32,000 nt of DNA from Halorhodospira halophila SL1 (GTDB lineage Bacteria > Pseudomonadota > Gammaproteobacteria > Nitrococcales > Halorhodospiraceae): NCBI RefSeq assembly GCF_000015585.1, contig NC_008789.1:2400001-2432000 (forward strand). The letters run 5' to 3'. The notes beneath the pieces are model-generated. The model was given only the letters and a program-made list of their open reading frames with translations, ran no database searches and had not been told where the DNA came from. The translations under genes were made by a program, and so were the position numbers. Position 1 is the stretch's first letter; each line of letters opens with the position of its first letter. Shown piece after piece: positions 13,334 to 26,009 of this stretch.

Positions 13334-13861
13334 ATGCACAACCTGATGGTCATCACCGCCCTCGGACACGACCGCCCCGGCATCGTCCGCGAACTAGCCA
13401 GTGCAGTGACCGAGACCGGCTGCAACATTGCCGACAGCCGCATGAGCGTGCTCGGCGGCGAGTTCGCCATGATCCTGATGGTCTCTGGGCGCTGGAACGA
13501 ACTGGCCAAACTCGAGACCAGCCTGCCCCACTCGGCACGGCGCATGGGCCTGGAGATCCACATCCAGCGCACCGAACCGGCCGCCACCGGCGAACAACTG
13601 CTGCCCTACTCGGTGGAGGTGGTCGCCCTGGATCACCCGGGGATCGTCGCCGAACTGGCCAACTTCTTCGCCACCCGCGAGATCAACATCCGCGACATGC
13701 AGACCGCCAGCTACGCCGCGGCCCACACCGGAACCCCGATGTTCTCGGTCTACCTGACCGTGGATGTCCCGGCCGGGCTGCACATCGCCAGCCTCCGCGA
13801 CGAGTTCATGGACTTCTGCGATCAGTTCAACCTGGACGCCATCATGGAGCCAGCCAAGTAG
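13334..13861 (+). CDS. gcvR: Glycine cleavage system transcriptional repressor (tandem ACT domains)
   Basis: Inner part of ORF 13292..13861. ATG 13334 gives MHNLMVITALGHDRPGIV ... GCNIADSRMSVLGGEFAMILMVSG, which aligns with the GcvR N-terminus. A second ACT block is VVALDHPGIV. It is divergent from dapA, as in E. coli. Confidence 0.85.
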   Translation: MHNLMVITALGHDRPGIVRELASAVTETGCNIADSRMSVLGGEFAMILMVSGRWNELAKLETSLPHSARRMGLEIHIQRTEPAATGEQLLPYSVEVVALDHPGIVAELANFFATREINIRDMQTASYAAAHTGTPMFSVYLTVDVPAGLHIASLRDEFMDFCDQFNLDAIMEPAK

Positions 13862-13905
13862 CCGCGGAACCGGACCACCCACCCCGATACGGGGATGAAA
13901 GCGCC

Positions 13906-15240
13906 ATGAGCCACCCGCCCGCCCAACGCATCTACGTGCTCGACACGTCGGTCCTGGTGCACGACCCCACGGCACTGTTCCACTTCGAGGAGCACGACGT
14001 CTGCCTGCCGTCGGCGGTCTTGGAAGAGCTCGACGCCGCCAAAGAGGGGCTGTCCGAGGTGGCGCGCAATGCCCGGCAGGTCAGCCGCTTCCTGGACGGC
14101 CTGCTGACCGGACACACGCCGGGCTCCCTCGAAGACGGCGTGCCTCTGGGCAGCGGCGCGCCGGGCGAACCGTCCGGGCGACTGTTCTTCGAGACCGAGG
14201 GGCACGGACGCGGCGACTCGGCCATCCTGGCCGCCGCCGCGCGGCTGCGCGAGGCCCTGCCGCCGACCCCGGTACTGGTCTCCAAGGACATCAACCTGCG
14301 CATCCGTGCGCAGGTGGCCGGCATTGCCGCCGAGGACTATGAGAGCGACCGGGTCATCGATGATGTCGACCTGCTGCCCACCGGCGTCGATGCCATCCCC
14401 GCAGCGGCCTGGGACCGGGCCCGCACCCACGAGCGCGGCTACCGGGTTCCGGTGCCCCAGGACACCGTCTGGCGGGTCAACCAGTGCCTCTACGCCGAGG
14501 ACGGCTTCGAGGGGGTAGTGCGTGGCTTCGAGGATGACCAGGCCATCCTGGCGCCGGTGACCGATTTCCGGGAGCACAACGCCGTCTGGGGCGTCCGTGC
14601 ACGCAACCGCGAGCAGAACTTCGCCCTGCACTTGCTCATGGACCCGGAAGTCGACCTGGTCTCGCTGCTGGGCGCCGCCGGCACCGGCAAGACCCTGCTG
14701 ACCCTGGCCGCCGGGCTGGCGCAGACCATGGACCAGGGGCGCTACCGGGAGGTCATCGCCACCCGGGCCACCGTGGCCATCGGCGAAGAGATCGGCTACC
14801 TGCCCGGCACCGAGGAAGAGAAGATGACCCCCTGGATGGGGGCCCTGATGGACAACCTCGAGGTCCTGAGCGCCCCGGACAGCGGCCTGGGCGGCGACTG
14901 GGCACGGGCGGCCACCGCCGATCTGCTGCACTCGCGGGTGCGCATCCGCTCGATGAGCTTCATGCGCGGCCGGACCTTCCTGGAGAAGTTCGTCATCCTC
15001 GACGAGGCACAGAATCTGACCGCCAAACAGATGAAGACGCTGATCACCCGAGCCGGCCCCGGCACCAAGGTGATCTGCCTGGGCAACATCGGCCAGATCG
15101 ACACCCCCTACCTGACCGAGAGCACCTCCGGGCTGACCTACGTGGTGGACCGGCTCAAGGACTGGCCCCACAGCGGCCACGTGACCCTGCGCCGCGGCGA
15201 GCGCTCGCGGCTGGCGGACTACGCCTCCGACGTCCTCTGA
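13906..15240 (+). CDS. PhoH-like ATPase with N-terminal PIN domain (PhoH2 / YlaK type)
   Basis: Inner part of ORF 13090..15240, which overlaps gcvR upstream. ATG 13906 gives MSHPPAQRIYVLDTSVLVHDP (PIN acidic motif), then Walker A GAAGTGKT and Walker B FVILDEAQN. Confidence 0.88.
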   Translation: MSHPPAQRIYVLDTSVLVHDPTALFHFEEHDVCLPSAVLEELDAAKEGLSEVARNARQVSRFLDGLLTGHTPGSLEDGVPLGSGAPGEPSGRLFFETEGHGRGDSAILAAAARLREALPPTPVLVSKDINLRIRAQVAGIAAEDYESDRVIDDVDLLPTGVDAIPAAAWDRARTHERGYRVPVPQDTVWRVNQCLYAEDGFEGVVRGFEDDQAILAPVTDFREHNAVWGVRARNREQNFALHLLMDPEVDLVSLLGAAGTGKTLLTLAAGLAQTMDQGRYREVIATRATVAIGEEIGYLPGTEEEKMTPWMGALMDNLEVLSAPDSGLGGDWARAATADLLHSRVRIRSMSFMRGRTFLEKFVILDEAQNLTAKQMKTLITRAGPGTKVICLGNIGQIDTPYLTESTSGLTYVVDRLKDWPHSGHVTLRRGERSRLADYASDVL

Positions 15241-15244
15241 GACC

Positions 15245-15270
15245 CGGGGCGCCGCCACGGCGGCGCCCCG
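15245..15270. terminator. GC-rich hairpin between convergent phoH2 and perM (possible bidirectional terminator)
   Basis: cggggcgccgcc (15245-15256), ac, then ggcggcgccccg (15259-15270). This is about 11 bp of perfect stem. There is no U-tract on either side. Confidence 0.45.
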
Positions 15271-15277
15271 CTCGGGC

Positions 15278-16375
15278 TCAGGGGACCAGCTCCTCCTCGA
15301 CCCCTGCGGATTCGTCATCCGGCGGCTTGCGGCGCCGCACCCACGCCTTGATGATCGCCTGGATAAAGGTGGCCAACGGGATGGCGAAGAAGATCCCCCA
15401 GAATCCCCAGATCCCGCCGAAGACCAGGATCGAGACGATGATCGCCACCGGGTGGAGGTTCACCACCTCGGAGAAGAGCAGCGGCACCAGGACGTTGCCG
15501 TCGAGCACCTGGATGATGGTGTAGGCCACCAGGACGTAGACCAGCTCCTGGCTCACCCCGAAGTGGAAGTAGGCGATCAGCGCCACCGGCACGGTCATCA
15601 CGAAGGCCCCGACATAGGGGATGATCACCGACAAGCCGGTGGCCACCGCGAGCAGCATGGCAAACGGCACCCCCAACAGGGAGAAGGTGATGTACGTGAC
15701 CGCCCAGACGATCAGGATCTCGATGAACTTGCCGCGGACGTAGTTGCCGATCTGCTGATCGACGTCCAGCCACACCTCCGAGGCAAAGGCACGGTGGCGG
15801 GGCATATGGTTGCTGACCCACTGCAGCAACAGCCGTTTGTCCTTGAGCAGGAAGAAGACCAAAAATGGCACCAGCACCGCGTAGATCACCAGCGTGCCGA
15901 GGATCATCAGCGACTGAACCGTCACCGAGGCCACCACCCGCTGCCCCAGGTCGGTGATCTCCCGCCGGGCGGTATCGAGCATCTCGCGGATCTGCGCCTC
16001 GGAGAAGAGCTGCGGGTAATGCTCGGGCAACTGCAGCAGCAGCATCTGCCCCTGGGCGAGGATCGCCGGCAGCTGATCCACCAGCTGGCCCACCTGGCGG
16101 TAGAGCAACGGGATCAGCGCAAAGAGCACCAGGACCAGGAAGGTGGTGAGGAACAGGATGACGATCACCACCGCCAGCATCCGGGGCACCCCGGCGCGTT
16201 CGAAACCCCTCACCACCCCTTCGAGCAAGTAGGCGATCACCACGGCGGCGATCACCGGGGCGAGAATGCTGCCGAGCATCAGCAGCGCCCCGAGGCCCAC
16301 CACCATCAAGACGATGAAGGCAGCGATCTGAGGGTCGTTGAATGTGCGTCGCAGCCAGCTACGAATCAGCTCCAA
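15278..16375 (-). CDS. perM: AI-2E family transporter (PerM/YfgO-like, UPF0118)
   Basis: Inner part of ORF 15278..16468. TTG 16375 has GAAGGAG 8 nt upstream and gives (M)ELIRSWLRRTFNDPQIAAFIVLMV, collinear with E. coli PerM MLEMLMQWYRRRFSDPEAIA. The longer ORF-track start at 16468 would overlap the bepA start region. Confidence 0.85.
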   Translation of the reverse strand: MELIRSWLRRTFNDPQIAAFIVLMVVGLGALLMLGSILAPVIAAVVIAYLLEGVVRGFERAGVPRMLAVVIVILFLTTFLVLVLFALIPLLYRQVGQLVDQLPAILAQGQMLLLQLPEHYPQLFSEAQIREMLDTARREITDLGQRVVASVTVQSLMILGTLVIYAVLVPFLVFFLLKDKRLLLQWVSNHMPRHRAFASEVWLDVDQQIGNYVRGKFIEILIVWAVTYITFSLLGVPFAMLLAVATGLSVIIPYVGAFVMTVPVALIAYFHFGVSQELVYVLVAYTIIQVLDGNVLVPLLFSEVVNLHPVAIIVSILVFGGIWGFWGIFFAIPLATFIQAIIKAWVRRRKPPDDESAGVEEELVP

Positions 16376-16477
16376 GGGCGCATCTCCTTCGCGGATCGCG
16401 CTTCGATGATAACGTAGCCAGAACAGACTTGCGCCTGCGGGAACTTGCATCCACGCCGCCCAGTCCAATTGTTGACC

Positions 16478-17938
16478 ATGCTCGATCGCCTCCGCCGAAC
16501 AGCCGCGGCCCTACTGATCGCCGCGCTGACGCTCACCGCCCCGGCCCCGTCGCCGGTCCAGGCGGAGAGCGCCCAGCTGCCGCAGCTTGGCGTACCGGGG
16601 GCGGACGCCCTGCCCGTGCACAAGGAGCGCGAACTGGGGGCCAAAATCATGCGCCAGGTCCGCCAGCACCTACCCCTGCACGAGGACCCAGAAACCAATG
16701 AGTATCTCCAGAACCTCGGGCACCGCCTGGCGGCGCACAGCAACGAGCCGGGATTCGGCTACAGTTTCTTCCTGGTGGAAGACGACCAGATCAACGCCTT
16801 CGCCCTGCCCGGCGGATACATCGGCCTCCACACCGGGCTGATCCGCGAAACCCGGACGGAGAGCGAACTCGCCGGCGTGCTCGCCCACGAGATCGCCCAC
16901 GTCACCCAGCGCCACATCGCTCGGCAGTACGCTCAGTCGCAGCAACTCAACCTGCAGACCGCCGCCGCCGTCCTGGCCGCCATCCTGATCGGCTCGCAGA
17001 GCCCGCAGGCCGGCAGCGCCGCCGCCATGGCGGGCATCGCCGCGCCCATCCAGCAGCAGCTGAGCCACTCCCGCACCCACGAGCAGGAGGCGGACCGGGT
17101 CGGCCTCCACAACCTGGTGGCCGCCGGGCTCGACCCCTACGGCATGCCCGGGTTTTTCGAGCGCCTGGCCGACGCCTCCCGTTTTGCCGAGGATCCGCCG
17201 GAGTACCTGAGCACCCACCCGCTCACCGAGCGCCGCCTGAACGAGGCCCAACGCCTGGCCGAACGCCTGGAGGGCGGCACCGTCTACGAGAGCGGCCATC
17301 ACGCCTTCATTCGCGCCCGGCAGCAGGTCCTCACTAATAGGGAGCGCAGCACCAGCGCAGTGGCGTTTATGCGGGATCAGTTGCGGCGCAGCACCGACGA
17401 CCCCACCGAGCGTGCGGCCGCCCTCTACGGCCTCGCCCTGGCGCTCTCTTGGGAAGAGGGGCAGCACGCCCAGGCCCTGGCCCTGCTCAACACCCTGAGC
17501 GCCATCGAGGGGGAGCGCCTCTACGTCCTCCTCGGGCGCGGCGAGATCTTGCGCGCCATCGGCGACACCGAGGAGGCACTGGCCACCTACCGGGAGGCCC
17601 GCTCCCTGTACCCGGGTAGCTGGGCCGCCACCTACCGACTGGCCGAGACCCTGCTGGCCGACGACGACGCCAAGGAGGCGCGCCGGGTGCTGGCCCGCGC
17701 GACCCGCGGGTCGTCCGGATCGCCTCAGCTCCTGCGGCTGCTGGCCGACGCCGCCCACGCCGCCGGCCGCGAGGCCGAGGGTTACATCGCGCTGGCCGAA
17801 CACTACCGGGGCCGCGGCGAACACCGACTGGCCGTGGCGCAACTGAACAATGCCATCCGCCACGCCGGCGAAGACCGCTACCAGCGCGCCCGCGCCGAGG
17901 CACTCAAGGCGCGCTGGACGCAGCACGCCGCGGACTAG
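16478..17938 (+). CDS. bepA: M48 family metalloprotease with C-terminal TPR region (beta-barrel assembly-enhancing protease BepA/YfgC-like)
   Basis: Inner part of ORF 16445..17938. ATG 16478 gives the signal peptide MLDRLRRTAAALLIAALTLTAPAPSPVQA. It has the zinc motif HEIAHVTQRH and TPR-like repeats at the C-terminus. It is divergent from perM, as in E. coli. Confidence 0.85.
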   Translation: MLDRLRRTAAALLIAALTLTAPAPSPVQAESAQLPQLGVPGADALPVHKERELGAKIMRQVRQHLPLHEDPETNEYLQNLGHRLAAHSNEPGFGYSFFLVEDDQINAFALPGGYIGLHTGLIRETRTESELAGVLAHEIAHVTQRHIARQYAQSQQLNLQTAAAVLAAILIGSQSPQAGSAAAMAGIAAPIQQQLSHSRTHEQEADRVGLHNLVAAGLDPYGMPGFFERLADASRFAEDPPEYLSTHPLTERRLNEAQRLAERLEGGTVYESGHHAFIRARQQVLTNRERSTSAVAFMRDQLRRSTDDPTERAAALYGLALALSWEEGQHAQALALLNTLSAIEGERLYVLLGRGEILRAIGDTEEALATYREARSLYPGSWAATYRLAETLLADDDAKEARRVLARATRGSSGSPQLLRLLADAAHAAGREAEGYIALAEHYRGRGEHRLAVAQLNNAIRHAGEDRYQRARAEALKARWTQHAAD

Positions 17939-17990
17939 CCATCCCTTCCACCGCCTTAGTAGACTGCCGCAGCATTCTGGGAGCGCGGCC

Positions 17991-18779
17991 ATGGCGTCCG
18001 GCGAAGCCTTCGACAGCGATTGGATCCTCCGCATGGGCGATGCCATCCCCGTGGGGGTGTTATGGCGTGCCCTGGAGGCCGACGGCGGCACGCCGGGGCC
18101 GGCCTGCACGGCAGCCTTCCAGAGCCTGCGCACCCAGCTCGACACCACGCAGGCCGCGCTGGAGGCGGTCGCCCCGGCGGCGGCCGGCAAGGAAGGGGGG
18201 ACGGCGGATCCAACCCCGGAGTGGCTGGCGCCGTGGCTCCAGACCATCGCCCGGCTGGGCCCCTGGCAGCACGGCCTCGAGCGCGCGCAGGGATTGCAGG
18301 CGGCCCTGGACCGGTACCTGCGCGCCTACGCCGAGTGTGCCCGGATCCTGATCGGTTCGGTGCGCGCCGGACTCGACGCCCTCGAGCACCGCCTGCAAGT
18401 GGCGGCGCAGACCCCGGAGCAGCCGCCGCCGGAGAGCTATCGAACGCTCTACGACTGGTGGCTGACCGAGAGCGAGGCCTGCTACGAGGAGACCCTGGCC
18501 TCGCAGCAGTGGGCCGCGGCCTTCGGGCGGCTGACCAATGCCACCACCGCCCTACTCAACCGCTATCAGGAGCAAGTCGACGCCGGGCTGCGCACCCTGG
18601 ACCTGCCCAACCGGGACGACTTCATCGACACCCAGCGGCGCCTGGTCGAACTCGAGCGCAGCCAGCGCCGCACGGCGCGCGGCGACGAGCTGACCGCGCT
18701 GCGCGAGGAGGTGGCCCGCCTGCGGGAGGAGGTGAACACCCTGCGTGCCGACCAGTCACCCGGATCGCGGGAGCGCTGA
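17991..18779 (+). CDS. phaE: Class III poly(R)-hydroxyalkanoate synthase subunit PhaE (short form)
   Basis: Inner part of ORF 17850..18779. GGGAG precedes ATG 17991. The C-terminal half, YRTLYDWWLTESEACYEETLASQQWAAAFGRLTNATTALLNRYQEQVDAGLRTLDLPNRDDF followed by a coiled coil, aligns by eye with Allochromatium PhaE. It is coupled to phaC (TGATG). Confidence 0.8.
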   Translation: MASGEAFDSDWILRMGDAIPVGVLWRALEADGGTPGPACTAAFQSLRTQLDTTQAALEAVAPAAAGKEGGTADPTPEWLAPWLQTIARLGPWQHGLERAQGLQAALDRYLRAYAECARILIGSVRAGLDALEHRLQVAAQTPEQPPPESYRTLYDWWLTESEACYEETLASQQWAAAFGRLTNATTALLNRYQEQVDAGLRTLDLPNRDDFIDTQRRLVELERSQRRTARGDELTALREEVARLREEVNTLRADQSPGSRER

Positions 18780-19819
18780 TGGCAGAGAGGCCGTCCGGCA
18801 ACGGACTGACCGACTGGCAGCGCCGGCTGATCGAGACGCTGGACCAGGCGGCAGCACTGCCCGTGGACACCCGCGGCGCCACCCCGTTCACCCACCACGC
18901 CGAGGTGGGGCCGGGCATGCACCTGCGCCGCTACAGCCCGACCCACGGCGCCCGACAACGCCCGGTACTGATCGTCTACTCGCTGGTCAACCGCCCGTTC
19001 ATCCTCGATCTGACCGAGCGCCGCTCACTGATCGCCGCCCTGACCCGGGCCGGCCACCCGGTCTACCTCCTCGACTGGGGGTACCCGAAGGGCGCCGATC
19101 GCTTCCTCGGCCTGGCGGATTACATCGAGGGCTTTCTCGCGGCAGCGGCCGACGAGGTCGCCGCCAGCGAGGGGACCACACCGGACCTGCTCGGTGTCTG
19201 CCAGGGGGGGGTCTTCGCGCTGTGCCTGGCCGCCCTGCAGCCGCAACGGGTCCACCGGCTGGTGAACCTGGTAACCCCGGTGGACTTCCACACCCCCGGC
19301 GACAACCTCAGTCGCATGGCGCGGGAGGTCGACTTCGACCAGGCGGCGCGGTCCCTCGGCAACATCTCGGCGGAGTGGCTCAACGGCGTCTTTGTCGCCC
19401 TGAAACCCTACCGACTCCTGGCCCAGCGCTACATGGACCTGCCCGAGCTGGCCGACCACCCGGAGGCCCTCCACGACTTCCTGCGCCTAGAGCGCTGGAT
19501 GTACGACAGCCCGGACCAGGCAGCCACCGCGTTTGCTGAATTCGGCCGCGAATGCTACCAGCGCAACGGACTGATCCAGGGCACACTGCAGCTCGACGGC
19601 CAGCCCGTGCGACTGGCCAACATCGAGCACCCGATCCTGAACGTCTACGCCGAACAGGACCACCTGGTCCCCGCCGACGCCGCCCGCGCCCTGGGCACAC
19701 ACGTGGGTTCAGGGGATTATGGCGAGCTGACCTTCCCCGGGGGGCACCTGGGCGTATTCATCAGCCGCCGTGCCCACGCGGAACTCCTGCCGCGCATCGT
19801 GGCCTGGCTGGCGGAATGA
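18779..19819 (+). CDS. phaC: Class III poly(R)-hydroxyalkanoate synthase catalytic subunit PhaC
   Basis: Inner part of ORF 18020..19819. ATG 18779 overlaps the phaE stop. The product has PVLIVYSLVNRPFILDL, YLLDWGYP, the lipase-box Cys in LLGVCQGG, VTPVDFHTP, and EQDHLVP ... FPGGHLG. It is about 346 aa, typical of class III PhaC. Confidence 0.93.
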   Translation: MAERPSGNGLTDWQRRLIETLDQAAALPVDTRGATPFTHHAEVGPGMHLRRYSPTHGARQRPVLIVYSLVNRPFILDLTERRSLIAALTRAGHPVYLLDWGYPKGADRFLGLADYIEGFLAAAADEVAASEGTTPDLLGVCQGGVFALCLAALQPQRVHRLVNLVTPVDFHTPGDNLSRMAREVDFDQAARSLGNISAEWLNGVFVALKPYRLLAQRYMDLPELADHPEALHDFLRLERWMYDSPDQAATAFAEFGRECYQRNGLIQGTLQLDGQPVRLANIEHPILNVYAEQDHLVPADAARALGTHVGSGDYGELTFPGGHLGVFISRRAHAELLPRIVAWLAE

Positions 19820-19849
19820 CCCAGATTGGTGCAGCGCCACATCGAGAAA

Positions 19850-19870
19850 GCTTGCAGCGGCCGCTCAAGC
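19850..19870 (+). terminator. Possible stem-loop downstream of phaC
   Basis: The sequence gcttgcagcgg/ccgctcaagc forms an imperfect hairpin of about 10 bp around a gcggccgc core, 30 nt after the phaC stop, with only a weak T-rich trail. Confidence 0.3.
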
Positions 19871-19922
19871 TCACCACAATCTTTGCTCCATTCGGGCGCA
19901 CGGCTGGACCGGGGCCGCGCCC

Positions 19923-19948
19923 AAAAAAAACCCCCTCAGAGAGGGGGC
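19923..19948 (-). terminator. Strong Rho-independent terminator, minus-strand orientation
   Basis: On the minus strand it reads gCCCCCTCtctGAGGGGG followed by TTTTTTTT. The stem is 19931-19937 with 19941-19947, and the 8 A residues at 19923-19930 on the plus strand supply the T-run. Confidence 0.85.
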
Positions 19949-20096
19949 AAGGAGTTGGCGACAACTGTCTCCAGGAAGGAGACGCCGCCAGGAGGAGACC
20001 GGCTAACAAAATCCTAGCTCCGTCAGGAGCCTTCCGCCGCAGACCCACCTAGATCTCTGCCCCACGCAGGGAGGGTGGGCTGCGGCATTGTTGCTA
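19923..20096 (-). ncRNA. Candidate stand-alone small RNA (about 175 nt) in the phaC-phaB intergenic region
   Basis: It is bracketed by the promoter at 20103-20131 and the terminator at 19923-19948. No credible ORF is present. The predicted structure is stem ccgcagcccacc/ggtgggtctgcgg, hairpin gctcc-tgac-ggagc, then stem UGGCGGC/GUCGCCA enclosing GUCUCC-UUCCU-GGAGAC. The CU-rich segments UCUCCUCC, UUCCU and ACUCCUU are left unpaired. Confidence 0.55.
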
Positions 20097-20102
20097 CGCA
20101 AC

Positions 20103-20131
20103 ATGATAGCGCCGTCACATTGACCTGTCAA
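20103..20131 (-). promoter_or_regulatory. Near-consensus sigma70 promoter (minus strand) for the candidate sRNA
   Basis: On the minus strand: TTGACA (20131-20126), a 17-nt spacer, then TATCAT (20108-20103). Confidence 0.6.
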
Positions 20132-20134
20132 ATA

Positions 20135-20170
20135 CGGGTCCGCCCGGCATCGATGCAACGGGCGGACCCG
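20135..20170 (-). terminator. Stem-loop immediately downstream of phaB
   Basis: A perfect 11-bp stem, cgggtccgccc (20135-20145) with gggcggacccg (20160-20170), and a 14-nt loop containing the palindrome gcatcgatgc. It lies 6 nt after the phaB stop and is followed on the minus strand by TATTT only. Confidence 0.5.
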
Positions 20171-20176
20171 GGCAGC

Positions 20177-20923
20177 TCAGAAGCTGCAGAACTGGCCACC
20201 GTTGACCGGCACATTGGCACCGGTAATGTAGCCCGACTCATCCGCCGCCAGGAAAGCGATCACCCGGGCGATCTCCCCGGGCTCGGCCATACGGCCGGCC
20301 GGGATCTGTGAGACGATCTGCTCACGCACATTATCGGGGATCGCCGCCGTCATGCTCGTCGCCACATACCCCGGCGAGACGGTGTTCACCGACACACCCT
20401 TGCGCGCGTTCTCCTTGGCCAGGGCCATCGTGAAGCCGTGCATCCCCGCCTTCGCCGCTGAGTAGTTGGCCTGACCGAACTGCCCGGTCTGGCCATTCAC
20501 CGAAGAGACATTGACGATGCGGCCAAAACCACGGTCCCGCATGCCGTTCAGGAACTGACGGGTGACGTTGAACACGCTGTCCAGATTGATGTCGACCACA
20601 TCCTGCCAGTCCTTGTGGTCCATCTTGTGGCAGAAGGCGTCGCGGGTGATGCCGGCGAGGTTGATCAGCACCTCGACCTCACCGTACGACGCCGCCATCT
20701 GCTCAGCCATGCGCTGGCAGGACGCGTAGTCCGCCACATTGCACTCGACGTAGCCGACCTCGAAGCCCTCCTCGCGCAGCTGCGCCTGCCACTCGTCCAC
20801 GCGCTCCGCCTTGGCGTCCACGCAGGTAGTGACCACGCGATACCCCTGCGCGGCGAGTTCGCGACAGACAGCGGTCCCAATGCCACCGTTGCCTCCGGTT
20901 ACCAGGGCCAAACGACCTGCCAT
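20177..20923 (-). CDS. phaB: Acetoacetyl-CoA reductase (SDR family)
   Basis: Inner part of ORF 20177..21004. ATG 20923 has GAGGAA upstream. The product has MAGRLALVTGGNGGIGTA (TGxxxGIG), NLAGITRD, and the catalytic YSAAKAG. It is about 248 aa and sits in a PHA gene context. Confidence 0.9.
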   Translation of the reverse strand: MAGRLALVTGGNGGIGTAVCRELAAQGYRVVTTCVDAKAERVDEWQAQLREEGFEVGYVECNVADYASCQRMAEQMAASYGEVEVLINLAGITRDAFCHKMDHKDWQDVVDINLDSVFNVTRQFLNGMRDRGFGRIVNVSSVNGQTGQFGQANYSAAKAGMHGFTMALAKENARKGVSVNTVSPGYVATSMTAAIPDNVREQIVSQIPAGRMAEPGEIARVIAFLAADESGYITGANVPVNGGQFCSF

Positions 20924-21004
20924 AACGGTATTCCTCGCTCTTTTGCACTCGACTTGCACCCGTGGGCGCTCGGCCCCCGGCCGCGGCGCACCACTTTTGT
21001 GCAT

Positions 21005-21020
21005 CGCAGCATCTGCTGCG
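21005..21020. promoter_or_regulatory. 16-bp palindrome CGCAGCA-tc-TGCTGCG at the phaB promoter (candidate PhaR operator)
   Basis: Perfect 7-bp arms. It lies just downstream of the putative phaB -10 element. TGC/GCAG-rich sequence is the type reported for PhaR operators in other proteobacteria. Confidence 0.35.
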
Positions 21021-21027
21021 CCTACGA

Positions 21028-21056
21028 AGCTTATGGTGCAGCGCAGCGAGTGTCAA
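21028..21056 (-). promoter_or_regulatory. Putative sigma70 promoter of phaB
   Basis: On the minus strand: TTGACA (21056-21051), a 17-nt spacer, then TAAGCT (21033-21028). The -10 element is weak. Confidence 0.4.
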
Positions 21057-21236
21057 CGCGCATTGCCGCCGGCGGGGCACCGCCGGGCAGGACAGGAGGC
21101 GAGGAACAGCAGGGTGGGCAGAGGGTTATGCGGCCCCGCGGAAACACCGTCCCGGGGTGGGCACGGGCGCGCGGGGGCGAAGCCACAACGGGACCGGGCG
21201 GGGCGTCGAAGGTGGAGGAGCGGGCGGGGCCGCCGA

Positions 21237-21767
21237 TCAGCCCTGAGGGCCTTCGCTGTCCTCGTCGCGGCGATGGCGCCCCGGGCCCCGGCTGGAGGCG
21301 GGCGGGTCTTCAAACCCGCTGTTTTCTTCGTCGCGGGTGCCGTCCAGCCCGCTCATCTGCCGCCACAGGGCCAGGTTGCGCTCAGCGAACTGGGTCATGA
21401 TATTCATGGGGTTGTGGTCCATGAACTCCCGGGTGCGCTGCTGGAAGACGCGCTGCTGATCCGCCCAGAGCTCCAGGCTCTTCTCCAGGTAACTGGTGAG
21501 CATGTTCTGCATGTTGCCGCCGTAGGCCCGGATGAGCTGGGCCAGCAGCTGGCTGGAGAAGATCGGCTCGCCCTCCTCCTCCTCCTCGCTGATGATCTGG
21601 AGCAGGATGCTGCGGGTGATGTCCTCGCGGGTCTTGGCATCGACCACCTGGAAGTCGACGCTCTCCAGCACCAGTCGCTTGACGTCGGCCAGCGTGATGT
21701 AGCTCGAGATCGCCGTATCGTACAGACGGCGATTGGGATACTTCTTGATGATGCGGGTATCTGACAT
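21237..21767 (-). CDS. phaR: Polyhydroxyalkanoate synthesis repressor PhaR
   Basis: 176 aa. MSDTRIIKKYPNRRLYDTAISSYITLADVKRLV ... DITRSILLQIISEEE is the conserved PhaR N-terminal DNA-binding signature. GGAGG lies 5 nt upstream of ATG 21767. Confidence 0.93.
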   Translation of the reverse strand: MSDTRIIKKYPNRRLYDTAISSYITLADVKRLVLESVDFQVVDAKTREDITRSILLQIISEEEEEGEPIFSSQLLAQLIRAYGGNMQNMLTSYLEKSLELWADQQRVFQQRTREFMDHNPMNIMTQFAERNLALWRQMSGLDGTRDEENSGFEDPPASSRGPGRHRRDEDSEGPQG

Positions 21768-21790
21768 TCAGAGCCTCCGGCGCGGGCACC

Positions 21791-21822
21791 CGAACCGTAT
21801 GCTGCGGTGCGTGGAGTGTCAA
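21791..21822 (-). promoter_or_regulatory. Putative sigma70 promoter of phaR
   Basis: On the minus strand: TTGACA (21822-21817), a spacer of about 17 nt containing GCACCGCAGC, then TACGGT. The hairpin-capable inverted repeat gctacc-N5-ggtagc (21830-21846) lies just upstream. Confidence 0.35.
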
Positions 21823-21905
21823 GCGAGTTGCTACCATGGGGGTAGCTTTCACGCGGCGCCGGCCACCCCCGGGCTGGCCCCACCCAACCCCGACCGAGGT
21901 TATTC

Positions 21906-22751
21906 ATGGGCAACGCCGAACGGGTGGCCACGCTGGAGCGGCTGGGTGACGCGAACACCCTACCCGCCCTGCCTTATGTCGCTCACGACATCCTGGTGGC
22001 CACCAGCCACAACGAGGTCAACATCAGCGACGTCGCCGAAACTCTGGCCCGCGAACCGGGCCTGGCGGCGCGCATCGTTGCCATCGCCAACTACGCCTTC
22101 TTCTCCCGCCGCGAGACGGTCTACTCCCTCGAGCAGGCGATCATGCGCATCGGGCTCAACCGCGTGCGTGTACTTGCCACCTCGCTGCTGCTCAACGACA
22201 TCTTCCAGACGGGCCAGTGCCCCCACTTCCAGCTCCAGCGGTACTGGCACGAGGCCCTAGGGACCGCCTTCTGCGCCGCTCGTCTGGCCCCCCACTCCGC
22301 CCCGCGGGAGAACCGCGACGCCGCGTACCTGGGTGGCGTGCTGCACAGCATCGGTCTGCTGCTGCTGGTGCATGTCTTCCCGCAGACCATGGACGAGGTG
22401 CTCGCCGAACATGAGGCGGACCCGGAGCGCTCGCTGGCCGGCATGACCCATCGCGCCCTGGGCTGCGACTACGGCGAGGCCGGGGCTCTGCTACTGCGCG
22501 AGTGGTCGATCCCCGAGGCCATCGTCGTCGCTGCGGGGCACACCCACCGCGAACGCTATCAAGGCGCCCACGCCGATCTGGTGACCACCATCCGGTTCGC
22601 CAACGAGTGGCTGCAGCGGGGTTTCGACCCGGAGCAGTGCGCCGACGCCCCGCCCATCCCGCAGGGCAAGCTCGAACGCATCGGCAACGCGTGCCGTGAG
22701 GAGTACGAGGCCCTGGCGGCGTTCGCACAACTGCTCAGCGGCGAGGCCTGA
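21906..22751 (+). CDS. HDOD domain-containing signalling protein
   Basis: 281 aa. LPALPYVAHDILVATSHNEVNISDVAETLAREPGLAARIVAIANYAFF ... SLEQAIMRIGLNRVRVLA is the HDOD pattern, and H/D-containing blocks follow. GAGG lies 6 nt before the ATG. Confidence 0.8.
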   Translation: MGNAERVATLERLGDANTLPALPYVAHDILVATSHNEVNISDVAETLAREPGLAARIVAIANYAFFSRRETVYSLEQAIMRIGLNRVRVLATSLLLNDIFQTGQCPHFQLQRYWHEALGTAFCAARLAPHSAPRENRDAAYLGGVLHSIGLLLLVHVFPQTMDEVLAEHEADPERSLAGMTHRALGCDYGEAGALLLREWSIPEAIVVAAGHTHRERYQGAHADLVTTIRFANEWLQRGFDPEQCADAPPIPQGKLERIGNACREEYEALAAFAQLLSGEA

Positions 22752-24120
22752 CCCCTGCCGCGGCCTGGCCGCCCTCGGCCAGCGACAGAAAACCAGCGGC
22801 CTTGTCTTCCGTCTCCTGGAGCTCGGCGGCAGCGGTGGAGTCCGCCACCACCCCGCCACCGGCCCAGTAGGTCATACTGCCGTCGCTGCACGTCGCGGTG
22901 CGAATGGCAATGCTGGTGTCCATGCGGCCATCCAGCCCCAGGTAACCGATGGCCCCACAGTAGACCCCGCGCGGTCCCGGCTCGAGCTCGGTGATGATCT
23001 CCATGGCACGGCGCTTCGGCGCCCCGGTGATGGAGCCACCGGGCAGGCAATCGCGCAGCAGATCGGTGGCGCGCCGCCCCGGGGCCAGGCGCCCGGTGAC
23101 AGTACTGACCAAGTGGTGCACGCTGGCAAAGCGCTCGGCGCGGCAGAGCGACGGCACCCGCACGCTGCCCACCTCGCACCCCTTGCCCAGGTCGTTGCGC
23201 AGCAGATCGACGATCATCACGTTCTCGGCCCGATCCTTGGCGCTGCCCAGCAGGTCCCGGCGGGCCGCCTCATCCTCGGCGGGATCGGTGAACCGCGGCC
23301 GGGTGCCCTTGATCGGCTCGGTGGTCACCCGCCCGTCGCCGTCGATGTGCAAGAAGCGCTCCGGCGAGAGGCTGAGCACATCGCCCCCGGGGAAGCGGAG
23401 CCACGCCGCAAAGGGCGCCGACGAGGCTGCGCGCAGGGCGAGGTACGCCGCCTGGGGATCCCCGCAGCAGGGCACCGAGAAGCGCCGGGCCAGATTGACC
23501 TGGTAGCAGTCACCGGCGTGCAGATACCCCTGCACCCGACGGAAAGCGGCCGCGTACCCATCGGCGTCCGGTTCACGGAGGACCGGACCTGCGGTCGACC
23601 ACGGCTGCGGTCTCGCCCCCGTCTCCCGGCGGCAGGCCACGTCCGCCAGCCAGGCCTCATCCAGGCGTCGCCCCACCGCAGTGCTGCATTCGTGGCGATG
23701 GTCGGTGATTACCGCGTGCTCGTAGATCCCCACGGCCATCTCGGGCAACGCGGGATCGGCACCCGGAACCCCCATCAGGCGGCGCCCCAGGTCGTAGCCG
23801 AAATACCCCACCGCGCCGCCGGTGAACGGCCACCGAGGGTCAACGGGGAGCGGGCCGAGGGCATCGAGCTCAGCAGCCAGGTGGGCCAGCGGATCGCCGT
23901 GCCGGCGCTCGACCCGCTCGCCGCGCCGGATGGTGGTCTGCCCGCCGGCTGCGATCAGCGTGACCGTCGGCCGGGCGACGAGGATGTCGTAACGCGCCCC
24001 GGCACAGCCGCCGTGGCCCGAGTCGAGCCACGCTGACCACGGTTCGCCCCCCAGGACGCGCATCGCCGTTGCCCCGTCACCGATGTACGGCAGGGATCGA
24101 GATTGCAGGGGTAAGGACAC
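22735..24120 (-). CDS. pabB: Aminodeoxychorismate synthase component I (chorismate-binding enzyme family)
   Basis: Inner part of ORF 22735..24588. The product has GGAVGYFGYDLGRR, GDCYQVNLARRF, SPERFL, PIKGTRPR, AKDRAENVMIVDLLRND, GGSITGAPKRRAMEII, and CGAIGY. The start is either GTG 24120 (GGAG 9 nt upstream), giving an N-terminal length comparable to E. coli PabB, or ATG 24063. The longer ORF-track start would run into fadD. Confidence 0.78.
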   Translation of the reverse strand: MSLPLQSRSLPYIGDGATAMRVLGGEPWSAWLDSGHGGCAGARYDILVARPTVTLIAAGGQTTIRRGERVERRHGDPLAHLAAELDALGPLPVDPRWPFTGGAVGYFGYDLGRRLMGVPGADPALPEMAVGIYEHAVITDHRHECSTAVGRRLDEAWLADVACRRETGARPQPWSTAGPVLREPDADGYAAAFRRVQGYLHAGDCYQVNLARRFSVPCCGDPQAAYLALRAASSAPFAAWLRFPGGDVLSLSPERFLHIDGDGRVTTEPIKGTRPRFTDPAEDEAARRDLLGSAKDRAENVMIVDLLRNDLGKGCEVGSVRVPSLCRAERFASVHHLVSTVTGRLAPGRRATDLLRDCLPGGSITGAPKRRAMEIITELEPGPRGVYCGAIGYLGLDGRMDTSIAIRTATCSDGSMTYWAGGGVVADSTAAAELQETEDKAAGFLSLAEGGQAAAGVRPRR

Positions 24121-24195
24121 GTAATGGTGCTCCGGACAGCTCAGATCGTTTAACCTCGCAACGATAAAAAAACCTACGGTCGACGGAGGAGAATC

Positions 24196-25929
24196 ATGAC
24201 CGACCAAGGCCATGCGGCATTCTACGATGCCCGTCCCTGGGAGCGCTGCTACGGTACCCCCCCCGACCAAGAGCCGATGCTGCAGGAACTGGGCACCGTG
24301 GCGGACATCGCCCGTCGGCGGGCCGAGCAGAGCCCGCACCTGCCGGCGTACACCGCCTGCCTGGAGAATGGCCTGAACGCCACCCTGGATTTTGCCACCG
24401 TCGACCGCCTGGCTGACTGCTTCGCCGCCTGGCTGATGACCGAGGCCGGGATCCGCCCCGGCGACCGGGTGGCGGTGCAGATGCCCAACGCCCTGCCCTA
24501 CCCGGTCGCCGTCTTTGGCACGCTGCGTGCCGGCGCGGTCCTGGTGAACATCAACCCCCTCTTCACCCCGCGGGAGATGCAGCACCAACTGCAGGACAGT
24601 GGCGCGCGCGTCCTGGTCATCGTCGACCTGTTTGCCGACAAGCTCCCCGGCGCGCTAACCGGGACCGCCGTCGAGGAGGTGGTCCTGAGCGGGGTTGCCG
24701 ACCTCTTCCCCTGGCTTAAGCGCGGCCTTGTTCACGGCGTCCTGCGCGCCAAGCGGGAGATCCCGGCCTCGCCGCAGGGCACGCGCCGGCTCGGAGCGGT
24801 GCTGGCCCGCGGCGAGCGGCTGGGCCCGCAGCCTTGGCCCGAGCGCAGTCCCGACGACCTGGCCCTGCTGCAGTACACCGGCGGCACCACCGGACTGCCC
24901 AAGGGGGCCGAGTTGCGCAACCGCAACATCCTCGCCAACCTCGAGCAGATCAAGCGGGTGGCCGGCGACGCCATCCGCCCGGGCGAGGACGTGGTGCTGA
25001 CCGCGCTCCCGCTCTACCACATCTTCGCCTTCACCTTTAACTTACTCACCTTCCACCACTACGGCTGCCGGAATATCCTGTGCCCCTCACCGCGCCCGGT
25101 GGACAAGCTCCGCAAGGCCTTCGAACAGTTCCCGGTGAGCAAGTTCTCGGCGGTCAATCTGCTCTTCTACGGCCTCCTGCAGGCGGAGTGGTTCCAGAAG
25201 AACCCGCCGCAGCACCTGGACTTCGCCATCGCCGGCGGCACCGCCCTGCACCGCAGCACCGCCGAACAGTGGCAGTCGCTGCTCGGCCACACGCCCCTCG
25301 AGGGGTACGGCCTCACCGAGACCAGCCCGGTCCTGGCGGTGAACCCGCCCCACGGCGAGAACCGCCTCGGCAGCGTTGGCGTTCCGCTCCCCGGGACGGA
25401 TGTGCGCATCGTCGACGATGACGACAGGCCCGTCCCCCAAGGTCAGACCGGCGAGATCGTCGGCCGCGGCCCCCAGGTCTTCGAGGGCTACTGGCAGCGC
25501 CCCGAGGAGAATCGCCAGACGCTGCGCGGCGGCTGGTTCCACACCGGCGACATCGGCTACATGGACCCCGATGGCTACATCTACATCGTCGACCGCAAGA
25601 AGGACATGATCGACGTCTCCGGCTTCAACGTGTACCCCAACGAGGTCGAAGAGGCGCTGGCCGAGCACCCGGCCGTGGCCGAGGTCGCCGTGGTGGGCGC
25701 ACCGCGCGGAGAGGCCGGGCAGGCGGTGATCGCCTTCGTGGTCACCCCCGAACAGCAGGAACTCGCCGAGTCGGAGCTGCTCGACTTCGCCCGACAGCAG
25801 TTGACCCATTACAAGGTCCCCCGCCGGGTGGTATTCCGCGACGCGTTGCCCAAATCGGCGGTGGGCAAGCTGCTGCGACGGGATCTGCGCGAGGAGGCTC
25901 GGGCCATCGTCGAGGCGAGCGGGGCGTAA
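24196..25929 (+). CDS. fadD: Long-chain-fatty-acid--CoA ligase (AMP-dependent synthetase/ligase)
   Basis: 577 aa. AMP-binding motif LQYTGGTTGLPKGAEL, then GYGLTETSP, TGDIGYMDPDGYIYIVDRKKD, and C-terminal PKSAVGKLLRR. GGAGGAG lies upstream of the ATG. Confidence 0.88.
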   Translation: MTDQGHAAFYDARPWERCYGTPPDQEPMLQELGTVADIARRRAEQSPHLPAYTACLENGLNATLDFATVDRLADCFAAWLMTEAGIRPGDRVAVQMPNALPYPVAVFGTLRAGAVLVNINPLFTPREMQHQLQDSGARVLVIVDLFADKLPGALTGTAVEEVVLSGVADLFPWLKRGLVHGVLRAKREIPASPQGTRRLGAVLARGERLGPQPWPERSPDDLALLQYTGGTTGLPKGAELRNRNILANLEQIKRVAGDAIRPGEDVVLTALPLYHIFAFTFNLLTFHHYGCRNILCPSPRPVDKLRKAFEQFPVSKFSAVNLLFYGLLQAEWFQKNPPQHLDFAIAGGTALHRSTAEQWQSLLGHTPLEGYGLTETSPVLAVNPPHGENRLGSVGVPLPGTDVRIVDDDDRPVPQGQTGEIVGRGPQVFEGYWQRPEENRQTLRGGWFHTGDIGYMDPDGYIYIVDRKKDMIDVSGFNVYPNEVEEALAEHPAVAEVAVVGAPRGEAGQAVIAFVVTPEQQELAESELLDFARQQLTHYKVPRRVVFRDALPKSAVGKLLRRDLREEARAIVEASGA

Positions 25930-26009
25930 CCGGCGTATCGGGACAGACCAGGCGGGCGTGGTATCCTGACGCGATCGTTCTCCCCGACGAGCAAGCCTGT
26001 AGAGGATCC

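Follow-up and report, generated by a model that had tools for sequence, protein, structure and literature searches.

A candidate small RNA gene between phaB and phaC in Halorhodospira halophila and its relatives, with a putative PhaR-type operator at its start

Comparative sequence analysis of the pha locus of Halorhodospira halophila SL1 points to a minus-strand gene, located between phaB and phaC, whose product would be a non-coding RNA of ca. 175 nt. We estimate the chance at roughly one in two that this unit is a real sRNA gene of a new family whose product acts in trans, is gated by PhaR and blocks Shine-Dalgarno sequences. The window, by which we mean the whole stretch of DNA analysed, comprises 32,000 nt (NC_008789.1, 2,400,001-2,432,000), and all positions are window positions. 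The genes surrounding the sRNA gene are the following:

17991-19819, plus strand: phaE (17991-18779) and class III phaC (ca. 18776-19819), convergent with the sRNA gene
20177-20923, minus strand: phaB (acetoacetyl-CoA reductase), co-oriented with the sRNA gene and directly upstream of it
21237-21767, minus strand: phaR (PHB_acc_N and PHB_acc domains), the presumed regulator

A sequence-only reading of this DNA had taken a 599-aa ORF (18020-19819) for phaC; the gene calls of relatives and tblastn showed that this region encodes phaE and a class III phaC instead. No phasin gene was found within the window. The phaB gene carries its own hairpin, which lies upstream of the sRNA promoter. The sRNA unit itself and its predicted product are composed of these elements, all on the minus strand:

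20103-20131, minus strand: promoter, with -35 TTGACA (20131-20126), a 17-nt spacer and -10 TATCAT (20108-20103)
19923-20097, minus strand: predicted transcript of ca. 173-175 nt, its start (ca. 20097-20095) placed by the spacing from the -10 and its end in the U8 tract
20037-20085, minus strand: 5′ domain, a long bulged hairpin (CCGCAGCCCACC / GGUGGGUCUGCGG) that is variable in sequence across the family
20016-20031, minus strand: small hairpin GGCUCC-UGAC-GGAGCU (GGCUCC-NNNN-GGAGCC in the closest relatives)
20001-20012, minus strand: A/U-rich single-stranded linker AUUUUGUUAGCC, a possible Hfq site
19983-19998, minus strand: block UCUCCUCCUGGCGGCG, which includes the seed UCUCCUCC (19998-19991), a predicted unpaired anti-Shine-Dalgarno sequence
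19956-19990, minus strand: composite hairpin with outer helix UGGCGGC/GUCGCCA, inner helix GUCUCC/GGAGAC and loop UUCCU
19949-19955, minus strand: ACUCCUU, the third CU-rich motif
19923-19948, minus strand: intrinsic terminator GCCCCCUC-UCU-GAGGGGG followed by U8, identified by terminator scan and conservation

A consensus scan of positions 14000-26000 returned the promoter as the sole sigma70 match, with 11 of 12 consensus positions, where shuffled sequences average 0.5 sites. A scan of the same region ranked the terminator (GCCCCCTC-TCT-GAGGGGG plus T8 in the DNA) first among terminator-like sites; both signals are as the sequence-only reading had described them. In ten aligned homologues TTGAC and the -10 (CTATCAT; TAGTAT in one) show little or no variation and the spacer is variable, and an equivalent promoter was recovered independently in Alkalilimnicola ehrlichii, Aquisalimonas and H. 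halochloris. Every homologue possesses a G/C terminator hairpin followed by at least seven U, with one C interrupting the tract in three of them, and the predicted homologous RNAs of 168-240 nt share the same layout. Indels of 1, 2 and 5 nt separate the invariant blocks and reading frames change between homologues, which argues that the unit is non-coding. No conserved ORF was found on either strand across the homologues, in agreement with the earlier view that nothing credible is encoded between promoter and terminator, and a small-protein reading was discarded for both strands because no frame is kept. With its own promoter, a U-tailed Rho-independent terminator, a conserved accessible seed and no ORF, the unit has the generic anatomy of an Hfq-type sRNA.

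The spacer element, for which an alignment of relatives had been suggested, is conserved in all relatives with the phaB-phaC arrangement, amounting to 12 distinct homologues from at least three genera. Carriers are Halorhodospira-like contigs, H. halochloris, H. abdelmalekii, A. ehrlichii and Aquisalimonas lutea, and the element is always located in the phaB-phaC spacer. The metagenome members are all flanked by phaB, and by phaC where the contig extends that far; the sRNA was never seen away from phaC. Scores obtained with nhmmer and a covariance model are 82-107 bits in relatives with the phaB-phaC spacer, 58 in A. ehrlichii and 32.6 in Aquisalimonas. The element is absent from Nitrococcus, in which phaC does not lie beside phaB, and from Chromatiaceae, Xanthomonadales, Thiothrix, Nitrospira and others with a related PhaC, and a phaC-based genome scan of 58 loci found it only in L001, a close relative. 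Scanning of metagenomes with the pattern CTCCTCCTGGCGGCG-N(10-40)-GTCGCCA gave 101 matches, six of which qualify as members by score (two of these, L102 and L128, had been obtained before via phaB); a seventh, L097, lies at a contig end and has no model match. The remaining matches were regarded as chance, with at most 25 bits and no terminator. Judged by these searches, the family does not extend beyond the lineages of Halorhodospira, Alkalilimnicola and Aquisalimonas. Identity of the 3′ domain to the window copy is 0.77-0.97, as compared to 0.49-0.76 for phaB third codon positions, and by this measure the 3′ domain is under purifying selection as non-coding DNA.

The predicted fold corresponds to the one first described, with a 12-bp bulged stem (20085-20037), a small hairpin (20031-20016) and a stacked hairpin (19990-19956). 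The folding energy calculated for a 178-nt RNA is -84.2 kcal/mol, versus -69.0 ± 4.3 kcal/mol for shuffled sequences (z = -3.5), and none of 200 shuffles was as low. Promoter hexamers and terminator are conserved, whereas the promoter spacer and the hairpins of the 5′ part have diverged, the latter through substitutions under which they still fold; the long 5′ hairpin differs even in close relatives such as L001, yet its folding into a hairpin persists. On the plus strand, the same bulged hairpin followed by CAUUGUUGCU could form a weak terminator for antisense or phaEC transcripts, although the scan called none.

In alignment A3 (12 sequences), 96.6% of the cells in the helices are paired, versus 45-68% for slid controls. 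Compensatory changes, which the sequence-only reading had proposed to look for, were found in this alignment in the inner helix (two pairs) and in the terminator but not in the outer helix; double changes affect four pairs in the 12 sequences and overall covariation is modest. The outer helix and the seed are invariant within the Halorhodospira/Alkalilimnicola set, so these sequences give no covariation signal, and a G.U pair of the outer helix is present in 12 of 12. Across the homologues the outer and inner helices contain 14 G.U and no A.C pairs, which indicates that the composite-hairpin fold belongs to the minus strand.

Three exposed CU-rich motifs had been noted as complementary to GGAGG-type ribosome-binding sites. 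The first of these, UCUCCUCC, is universal (12 of 12 homologues), but the other two are not conserved: the loop of the composite hairpin varies (UCCCC, UUCCU, UAACC, CUACUUUG), and instead of ACUCCUU other homologues have AACCCUUU, AAGCUUAG or UUCCUCUU. The complete block UCUCCUCCUGGCGGCG shows no change in 11 of the 12 homologues (ten sequences of alignment A2 plus A. ehrlichii), and Aquisalimonas retains UCUCCUCC, followed by AGGCGAC. The predicted probability that the seed is unpaired, 0.48-0.87 versus a whole-RNA mean of 0.34-0.43, exceeds the mean in all 12 homologues; in the window's own RNA, accessibility is moderate (0.53). An A/U-rich stretch is found directly upstream of the seed in most homologues, L064 and L068 being G/C-richer there, and this linker is partly paired in several predicted folds (probability unpaired 0.20-0.49). 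The seed UCUCCUCC is a near copy of the 3′ tail of 16S rRNA.

Two features go beyond the sequence-only reading, namely a candidate operator at the start of the sRNA and a predicted convergent antisense unit. The former is a palindrome related to boxes in the phaB and phaR promoters:

20089-20103, no strand assigned: palindrome TGTTGC-GTA-GCAACA with core TGC-N3-GCA (20100-20092), following the -10 and spanning the predicted start; candidate PhaR operator
21000-21056, minus strand: phaB promoter TTGACA-17-TAAGCT (21056-21028), with box 1 TGCGCTGCA (21045-21037) in the spacer
21008-21000, minus strand: box 2 TGCGATGCA of the phaB promoter, ca. 20 nt after the -10
21794-21822, minus strand: phaR promoter TTGACA-17-TACGGT, whose spacer holds the near-box CGCACCGCA (21811-21803)

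All homologues, S. halobius among them, keep TGC and GCA of the sRNA palindrome unchanged, with variable central 3 nt and Y/R flanks. In S. halobius no sense promoter or terminator could be recognised around the box. Upstream of phaB, 10 of 11 relatives have one or more perfect boxes, the H. halochloris copy being mismatched, and both phaB boxes occur in seven Halorhodospira-like loci. With its flanks, phaB box 2 (ATGCTGCGATGCACAAA) closely resembles the sRNA box (ATGTTGCGTAGCAACAA). The near-box in the phaR promoter has one mismatch in the window, and L060 and L066 possess a perfect TGC-N3-GCA at the equivalent position. The PhaR/AniA motif of S. meliloti and the EMSA-positive box of the mmgR promoter agree with TGC-N3-GCA (PMC12542648). 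The motif occurs 21 times in the window versus 14 ± 3.8 expected, an enrichment that is not significant, and three of the 21 sites are within the ca. 0.8 kb of pha intergenic DNA. We infer that PhaR binds TGC-N3-GCA at the sRNA start. A role in carbon storage had been suggested from the position of the unit inside the PHA locus, and it gains independent support from a candidate PhaR-type operator that lies on the predicted start and is common to the phaB and phaR promoters. The palindrome might alternatively represent a 5′ RNA hairpin; its second position shows U-A, U-G, C-G and C-A, all four combinations. The hairpin reading was judged less likely than an operator because the predicted start lies inside the palindrome and the same motif is found between the -35 and -10 of phaB.

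The proposed mechanism is as follows. Sequence and comparison indicate that the sRNA would be transcribed from its own strong sigma70 promoter to the Rho-independent terminator. PhaR, encoded two genes away, may bind the start-site palindrome and repress the sRNA gene, and PHB granules would titrate PhaR, leading to derepression of the sRNA along with phaB and phaR, which have the same box in their promoters. The location of the accessible UCUCCUCC between the A/U-rich linker and a stable hairpin with U-tailed terminator suggests an Hfq-type layout, and UCUCCUCC would pair in trans with GGAGG-type Shine-Dalgarno sequences of target mRNAs, blocking translation initiation. PHB status would thereby be fed back to granule or carbon-flux proteins, as by MmgR in Sinorhizobium meliloti. 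A sliding duplex scan of the window, dominated by GC-rich noise, gave no convincing conserved target, nor did a search of the family loci for matches of at least 9 nt to the reverse complement of the seed, and in none of 10 loci do the ribosome-binding sites of phaE, phaC, phaB, phaR or the HDOD gene show extended seed complementarity. A lone AGGAGGAGA-AG-ATG site (L001, L086) was rejected as it is internal to a PIN/PhoH ORF.

The convergent unit is represented in the window by two features:

19852-19880, plus strand: candidate antisense promoter TTGCAG-N17-CACAAT, between the phaC stop and the sRNA terminator and directed toward the sRNA gene
19830-19838, no strand assigned: near-box TGCAGCGCC upstream of the antisense -35 (weak evidence)

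In ten homologues the TTGC and A.AAT of this promoter are invariant at a spacing of 16-18 nt, with an unconserved spacer. The near-box is a perfect TGC-N3-GCA in five of ten homologues and has at least one mismatch in the remaining five, one of which is the window copy. Transcripts of the phaC strand, produced by phaEC read-through or from the antisense promoter, would be fully complementary to the sRNA and may form an extra layer of control by sponging it or being co-cleaved with it. This leads to the tentative and rather improbable picture of a PhaR-gated sense/antisense switch, in which the seed would compete with ribosomes for GGAGG when granules titrate PhaR, the phaC-strand RNA would set the threshold, granule status in these haloalkaliphiles would be turned into a programme of translation, and the whole would have arisen independently of MmgR.

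The same arrangement could mean that the RNA acts mainly in cis, as an antisense to the phaEC 3′ UTR or to a dedicated antisense RNA. Pairing over ca. 150-200 nt would then lead to RNase III cleavage or transcriptional interference and set the level of phaEC mRNA, or the sRNA would be neutralised in the way SdsR is by RyeA. We consider this unlikely, though several observations agree with it. The conserved phaC-strand promoter aims into the sRNA gene and was called independently, with 10 of 12 consensus positions (TTGCCA-16-TACAAT), in A. ehrlichii and Aquisalimonas; plus-strand intrinsic terminators were found in four genera, 20-50 nt within the 5′ part of the sRNA: in these two, which have both antisense signals, and in H. 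halochloris and S. halobius. In the window the terminator scan called no phaC-strand terminator between the phaC stop and the sRNA gene, and the constant proximity to phaC, with absence of the element from Nitrococcus, would also fit. However, the promoter is weak in the window clade (7 of 12 in the window, uncalled in the consensus scan), where the terminator scan of the window called no antisense terminator, and the L060/L086 lineage keeps the sRNA 3′ domain intact without any antisense promoter. Moreover, pairing with a cis-antisense partner leaves the primary sequence unconstrained, yet no change is seen in the 16-nt block or in most of the 3′ domain and the 5′ domain drifts freely, which favours a partner in trans. 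Cis and trans action are compatible and can coexist.

Still less probable is that selection acts on the plus strand, where CGCCGCCAGGAGGAGA, CAAGGAG and the loops would make up a GGA-rich RNA titrating a CsrA/RsmA-type repressor, or an element of the phaEC 3′ UTR, with the minus-strand unit as merely its antisense regulator. The conserved block is equally conserved when read on the plus strand, where it is GGA-rich, the antisense promoter and terminators exist, and S. halobius has a well-defined unit on the plus strand only and keeps the GGAGGAGGAG tract; RsmZ/Y-RsmA control of PHB genes is known in the gammaproteobacterium Azotobacter (PMC9049629). Nevertheless, no Rsm/Csr family gave a match on either strand at E up to 10, and on the plus strand the 14 G.U pairs would become A.C mismatches. 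The best conserved signals, the U-tailed terminator and the promoter with 11 of 12 positions, are on the minus strand, the GGA of the loop is missing in three of seven loop variants, and the lineage without antisense promoter (L060/L086) retains the block. That the spacer contains no functional RNA and is conserved as DNA (PhaR operators, promoters, back-to-back terminators) or as a small-protein gene is very improbable: several candidate operators and two terminator hairpins are indeed found within it and H. halochloris has a called 70-aa gene antisense to the element, but the most conserved part (seed and hairpin, 19998-19956) is not a promoter, operator or terminator, phaB already has a hairpin of its own, the helices have G.U pairs of the RNA type along with compensatory changes, and no reading frame is kept across the homologues on either strand.

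RNA control of PHA/PHB is known in few systems, which include MmgR in Sinorhizobium, ArrF and RsmZ/Y in Azotobacter, and CrcZ/Y in Pseudomonas (PMC8401924, PMC9049629). No such system is known in bacteria whose PHA synthase is a class III PhaEC, nor in any haloalkaliphilic phototroph, and in the literature we found no paper on sRNAs in the genera described here or in any phaB-phaC spacer. The proposed family is small, sharply defined and syntenic, and its occurrence in completely sequenced or cultured species (H. halochloris, AP017372; A. ehrlichii, CP000453; Aquisalimonas lutea) makes the hypothesis directly testable. It may be of use for raising or tuning the PHA yield of halophilic production strains by engineering, and the possible sense/antisense pairing could provide a tractable case of sRNA sponging.

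No Rfam family, whether of housekeeping or other RNAs, reaches its threshold on either strand of the window and 11 homologous loci, so the sRNA would represent a new family; the sequence-only reading had not recognised it as SRP RNA, 6S RNA, tmRNA or RNase P RNA. Permissive scans of the window and four homologues (E up to 10) gave sub-threshold matches only, and those that recur, always on the sRNA strand, are to CU-rich regulatory RNAs: anti-hemB (RF02837; 17.4-28 bits vs gathering 49.5), the Betaproteobacteria toxic sRNA (RF02278; 17.4-20.6 bits vs 50) and mmgR/suhB (RF00519; gathering 41), for which the window scores 18.2, H. halochloris 20.9 and Aquisalimonas 22.9 bits, the other two loci being unlisted. 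The cuckoo/alpha-r14/CcsR families gave no match in these five sequences even at E up to 10. Similar to anti-hemB, the toxic sRNA and the cuckoo/alpha-r14/CcsR group, the sRNA described here has a C/U-rich tract complementary to Shine-Dalgarno sequences. The suggested likeness to the CCUCCUCCC-loop (cuckoo) sRNAs holds in principle, as regards the anti-Shine-Dalgarno tract, but extends neither to a family match nor to repeated loops. The cuckoo type displays CCUCCUCCC in at least two hairpin loops, whereas the tract here is single-stranded and 5′ of the hairpin; only one hairpin has a CU-rich loop, and this loop varies among homologues.

In enterobacteria, SdsR (RyeB) and RyeA (SraC) are encoded by opposite-strand units that overlap nearly fully and have their own promoters, so one RNA can neutralise the other. 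The locus described here may be similar, in that two predicted opposite-strand units, each with a promoter of its own, would overlap almost completely. It is unrelated to SdsR/RyeA in sequence. The predicted antisense unit, moreover, has only weak signals in the window clade and is absent in one lineage, and it may simply be the phaEC 3′ UTR.

The best reading is that the sRNA is analogous, not homologous, to MmgR (alpha-r8, RF00519 'suhB'). The mmgR gene presumably lies outside the pha cluster, whereas the sRNA gene described here is fixed between phaB and phaC. Further differences are the family-model scores of only 18-23 bits vs 41, which do not support homology by model, the length (77 nt for MmgR, 170-240 nt here, with an extra variable 5′ domain), the presence of a convergent antisense unit, and the occurrence in Gammaproteobacteria instead of Alphaproteobacteria. 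The similarities concern layout and setting. MmgR has a CU-rich (CCUCCC-like) single-stranded tract between a hairpin and a U-tailed terminator, a predicted feature of the sRNA described here as well, and in both a PhaR/AniA-type box with TGC-N3-GCA core, a candidate in our case, adjoins the -10 and start. In S. meliloti, AniA represses MmgR and MmgR lowers phasin levels (PMC8401924). MmgR reduces phasin levels and PHB content, and the window sRNA, which sits in the pha cluster, is proposed to act likewise. The comparison suggests that in these gammaproteobacteria of salt lakes translation is coupled to the status of the storage polymer, in a way similar to that of rhizobia, which use the unrelated sRNA MmgR. 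If true, PhaR control of a Shine-Dalgarno-blocking sRNA would be a convergent design of Alpha- and Gammaproteobacteria, and such convergence would suggest that a post-transcriptional layer generally accompanies the sensing of granules by PhaR.

On comparative sequence evidence, the minus-strand promoter-to-terminator unit in the phaB-phaC spacer of Halorhodospira halophila is a genuine sRNA gene and belongs to a conserved family that had not been described before. Its promoter and terminator, about 175 nt apart, are present as described in the sequence-only reading: in a consensus scan of the 12 kb around the element the promoter is the sole sigma70-like site (11/12 matches) and the terminator ranks first. 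For the 178-nt RNA the predicted folding energy is -84.2 kcal/mol as compared to -69.0 ± 4.3 kcal/mol for dinucleotide shuffles (z = -3.5), and the predicted fold includes all three structural elements proposed earlier.

Features of the window (sRNA promoter and terminator from the sequence; phaE and phaC from gene calls in relatives and tblastn)
2533-4305, CstA
7790-11689, minus strand, FGAM synthase-type (PurL-like) ORF
13090-15240, plus strand, 716-aa ORF with PIN_4 and PhoH domains (PhoH-like ATPase fused to PIN nuclease)
15278-16468, minus strand, AI-2E transporter
17991-18779, plus strand, phaE (PHA_synth_III_E in relatives), ribosome-binding site GGGAG
about 18776-19819, plus strand, class III phaC, start overlapped by phaE
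19852-19880, plus strand, putative antisense promoter TTGCAG-17-CACAAT, only 7/12
19948-19923, minus strand, sRNA terminator GCCCCCTC-TCT-GAGGGGG, then T8
20103-20089, palindrome TGTTGC-GTA-GCAACA, directly after the sRNA -10
20108-20103, minus strand, sRNA -10 TATCAT, 17-nt spacer from the -35
20131-20126, minus strand, sRNA -35 TTGACA
20177-20923, minus strand, phaB, acetoacetyl-CoA reductase
21237-21767, minus strand, phaR
26010-26753, YebC
26757-28914, RuvCAB

The class III phaC is the plus-strand alpha/beta-hydrolase ORF that converges with the sRNA gene. A single 599-aa 'phaC' ORF was rejected, as relatives' gene calls and tblastn resolve it into phaE and phaC; what the long ORF reads from 18020 up to the true phaC start is an out-of-frame extension. 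No phasin gene is found in the window. Directly 3' of the phaB stop lies a strong hairpin, GGGUCCGCCCG...CGGGCGGACCC (20134-20171, minus strand), with only a short UAUUU as tail, which overlaps the sRNA -35. Termination of phaB may be leaky, so that read-through could yield a longer phaB-sRNA transcript as well. The phaB coding strand also contains UUCCUGGCGGCGG (20243-20253; 3681 in the A. ehrlichii locus, L171), with 10-11 nt common with CUCCUGGCGGCG of the sRNA; being on the same strand the two are not complementary, and the match is probably a coincidence of GC-rich DNA.

The phaB neighbourhoods of twelve PhaB relatives and one phaC relative were compared, the nearest PhaB proteins being those of an ENA metagenome contig (94% identity), a Halorhodospira sp. 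MAG (80%), H. halochloris (77%), H. abdelmalekii (75%) and Alkalilimnicola ehrlichii (70%). Spacer conservation, which had been proposed as a check, was found: at every fetched locus arranged phaR-phaB-spacer-phaC-phaE the element lies close behind the 3' end of phaB, in the same orientation. R1, a covariance model built on the 3' domain, sets members apart from all other sequences, with 82-107 bits for Halorhodospira-like members, 58 bits for A. ehrlichii, 32.6 bits for Aquisalimonas lutea and 25 bits or less for the next best matches, non-members that all lack the terminator and that contain the search pattern by construction since they were drawn from a metagenome pattern scan. Six further scoring members came out of that scan, every one of them from a soda-lake or hypersaline sample and located next to phaB and, wherever the contig reaches that far, phaC. 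Sediminicurvatus halobius and Nitrococcus mobilis mark the edges of the family. The diverged spacer of the former (L172 3800-4134, CP086615; R1 only 9 bits) retains a palindrome (TTGC-AGA-GCAA), a CUCUCCUCCUCCC tract and an antisense promoter and terminator; on the sense strand neither a promoter nor a terminator can be recognised. Either the sRNA has diverged here, or the phaC-strand unit alone survives. Nitrococcus mobilis (L173, CH672427, 3747-3834) has phaR-phaB and an 87-nt spacer, with no adjacent phaEC and no element, which was likewise missing from the loci examined in more remote bacteria that have a related PhaC. The H. abdelmalekii phaR (L069 1462-2115) is called on the strand opposite phaB, unlike at all other loci. 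Another homologous locus (L064, about 3500-3843) has a ~250-nt insertion between sRNA terminator and phaC, built from two copies, duplicated or inverted, of one segment (GCGAGGGGACGCCGT.AACCC.TCCCTGGAGGCTATCG...), which possibly represents a MITE-like element or small repeat.

Alignment of ten homologues revealed little or no variation in TTGAC, the -10 hexamer, the block UCUCCUCCUGGCGGCG, GTCGCCAA and the terminator core, whereas the promoter spacer and the entire 5' domain drift, with indels up to 40 nt. Identity to the window copy is 0.77-0.97 in the 3' domain as compared to 0.49-0.76 at phaB third codon positions. In a model-based alignment, paired cells amount to 96.6%, versus 45-68% with the partners slid. 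The compensatory changes suggested as a check occur in the inner helix and the terminator (each with two pairs in which both partners differ). No such change is seen in this alignment for UGGCGGC/GUCGCCA, the outer helix, which is uninformative; in Aquisalimonas its G.U pair has become A-U. Of the three CU-rich motifs first noticed, only the seed UCUCCUCC is universal, while neither the loop, UUCCU in this copy, nor ACUCCUU is constant among homologues. Predicted seed accessibility is 0.48-0.87 versus an RNA average of 0.34-0.43, and is higher in 12/12 homologues.

The palindrome resembles a PhaR-type operator. In all homologues its TGC and GCA are invariant, the central three bases variable and the flanks Y/R, and the predicted sRNA transcription start falls within it if the usual -10 spacing is assumed. 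At seven Halorhodospira-like loci, that of the window included, the phaB promoter has two such boxes, the first in the -35/-10 spacer and the second ~20 nt past the -10, with flanks resembling the sRNA box (ATGCTGCGATGCACAAA vs ATGTTGCGTAGCAACAA); most other relatives retain one. Two lineages carry a perfect box in the phaR promoter spacer, where the window copy departs from it at one position. Of 21 TGC-N3-GCA sites in the window, three lie within ~0.8 kb of pha intergenic DNA; over the whole window the motif is not enriched. The Sinorhizobium-type precedent is that of S. meliloti, where the PhaR (AniA) motif likewise has a TGC-N3-GCA core and one site bound in EMSA is 13 nt distant from the mmgR start (PMC12542648); AniA represses the mmgR sRNA, which reduces both PHB content and the level of phasins (PMC12542648; PMC8401924). 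Because of this shared core and its site at an AniA-repressed sRNA gene, we infer that PhaR would repress the sRNA gene and that PHB granules would lift the repression. A 5' RNA hairpin formed by the palindrome is the weaker alternative to an operator.

We give roughly even odds, judging from sequence, that the element encodes a trans-acting sRNA of the Hfq type, gated by PhaR. The accessible UCUCCUCC tract is very similar to the 16S rRNA 3' tail (GAUCACCUCCUUA) and would occlude GGAGG-type ribosome-binding sites. Duplex and site comparison gave no extended pairing to the local pha ribosome-binding sites. A mainly cis-antisense action, on the phaEC 3' UTR or on an antisense RNA, is compatible with the trans-acting reading; as the main role it is unlikely, since cis-antisense pairing would not constrain primary sequence, yet the sequence is invariant, which argues for a trans partner.

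Between the phaC stop and the sRNA terminator, a promoter-like site on the phaC strand, which the earlier reading does not mention, is directed into the sRNA gene. Ten homologues share its TTGC and A.AAT without change, 16-18 nt apart, around a spacer that is not conserved, and in an unbiased scan the A. ehrlichii and Aquisalimonas loci each have three promoter-like matches (phaB, sRNA and antisense) and no others. Four relatives have an antisense intrinsic terminator 20-50 nt into the sRNA 5' region; the 12-kb scan called no plus-strand terminator in the window.

Antisense features in relatives (coordinates of each locus)
L171 4159-4132, minus strand, A. ehrlichii promoter, 10/12
L174 4133-4106, minus strand, Aquisalimonas promoter, 10/12
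L171 3902-3882, A. ehrlichii terminator
L174 3903-3877, Aquisalimonas terminator
L063 3521-3498, H. halochloris terminator
L172 3863-3847, S. halobius terminator

These promoters and terminators make it likely that phaC-strand transcripts overlap the sRNA, which they could sponge or with which they could undergo cleavage. That the plus strand is the selected one, as a GGA-rich, CsrA-sponge-like RNA, is less probable than a mainly cis-antisense role: helices 1 and 2 contain 14 G.U and zero A.C pairs, which assigns the fold to the minus strand, no Rsm/Csr match was found, and one lineage (L060/L086) has an intact sRNA yet no room for an antisense promoter. Conservation of the DNA only, or a small protein, is very improbable, the latter being ruled out on either strand by indels of 1, 2 and 5 nt between invariant blocks and by frames with local peptide matches that vary from homologue to homologue on both strands, which bears out the earlier view that nothing credible is encoded here. 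A 70-aa gene called in H. halochloris (AP017372, L063 3571-3783, minus strand), which overlaps the phaC stop and runs antisense to the 3' domain of the sRNA, is probably spurious, as its frame is not kept in other homologues.

Rfam 15, a scan of which the earlier reading had proposed as a check for a known housekeeping RNA, gave no family at threshold on either strand of the window and 11 homologous loci. Recurrent weak matches were to three CU-rich regulatory sRNAs only, all on the sRNA strand: anti-hemB (RF02837, 17-28 bits; gathering score 49.5), mmgR/suhB (RF00519, 18-23 bits; 41) and Betaproteobacteria toxic sRNA (RF02278, 17-21 bits; 50). Full-text literature searches turned up no account of an sRNA in these genera or in a phaB-phaC spacer. 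The sRNA hypothesis is directly testable, and the system may come with a built-in antisense partner. The element resembles the three families in proposed action but is a member of none; we classify it among the CU-rich, putatively SD-blocking sRNAs, with MmgR as the PhaR-controlled precedent, and it is apparently a convergent solution in Gammaproteobacteria for linking PHB granule sensing to translation.
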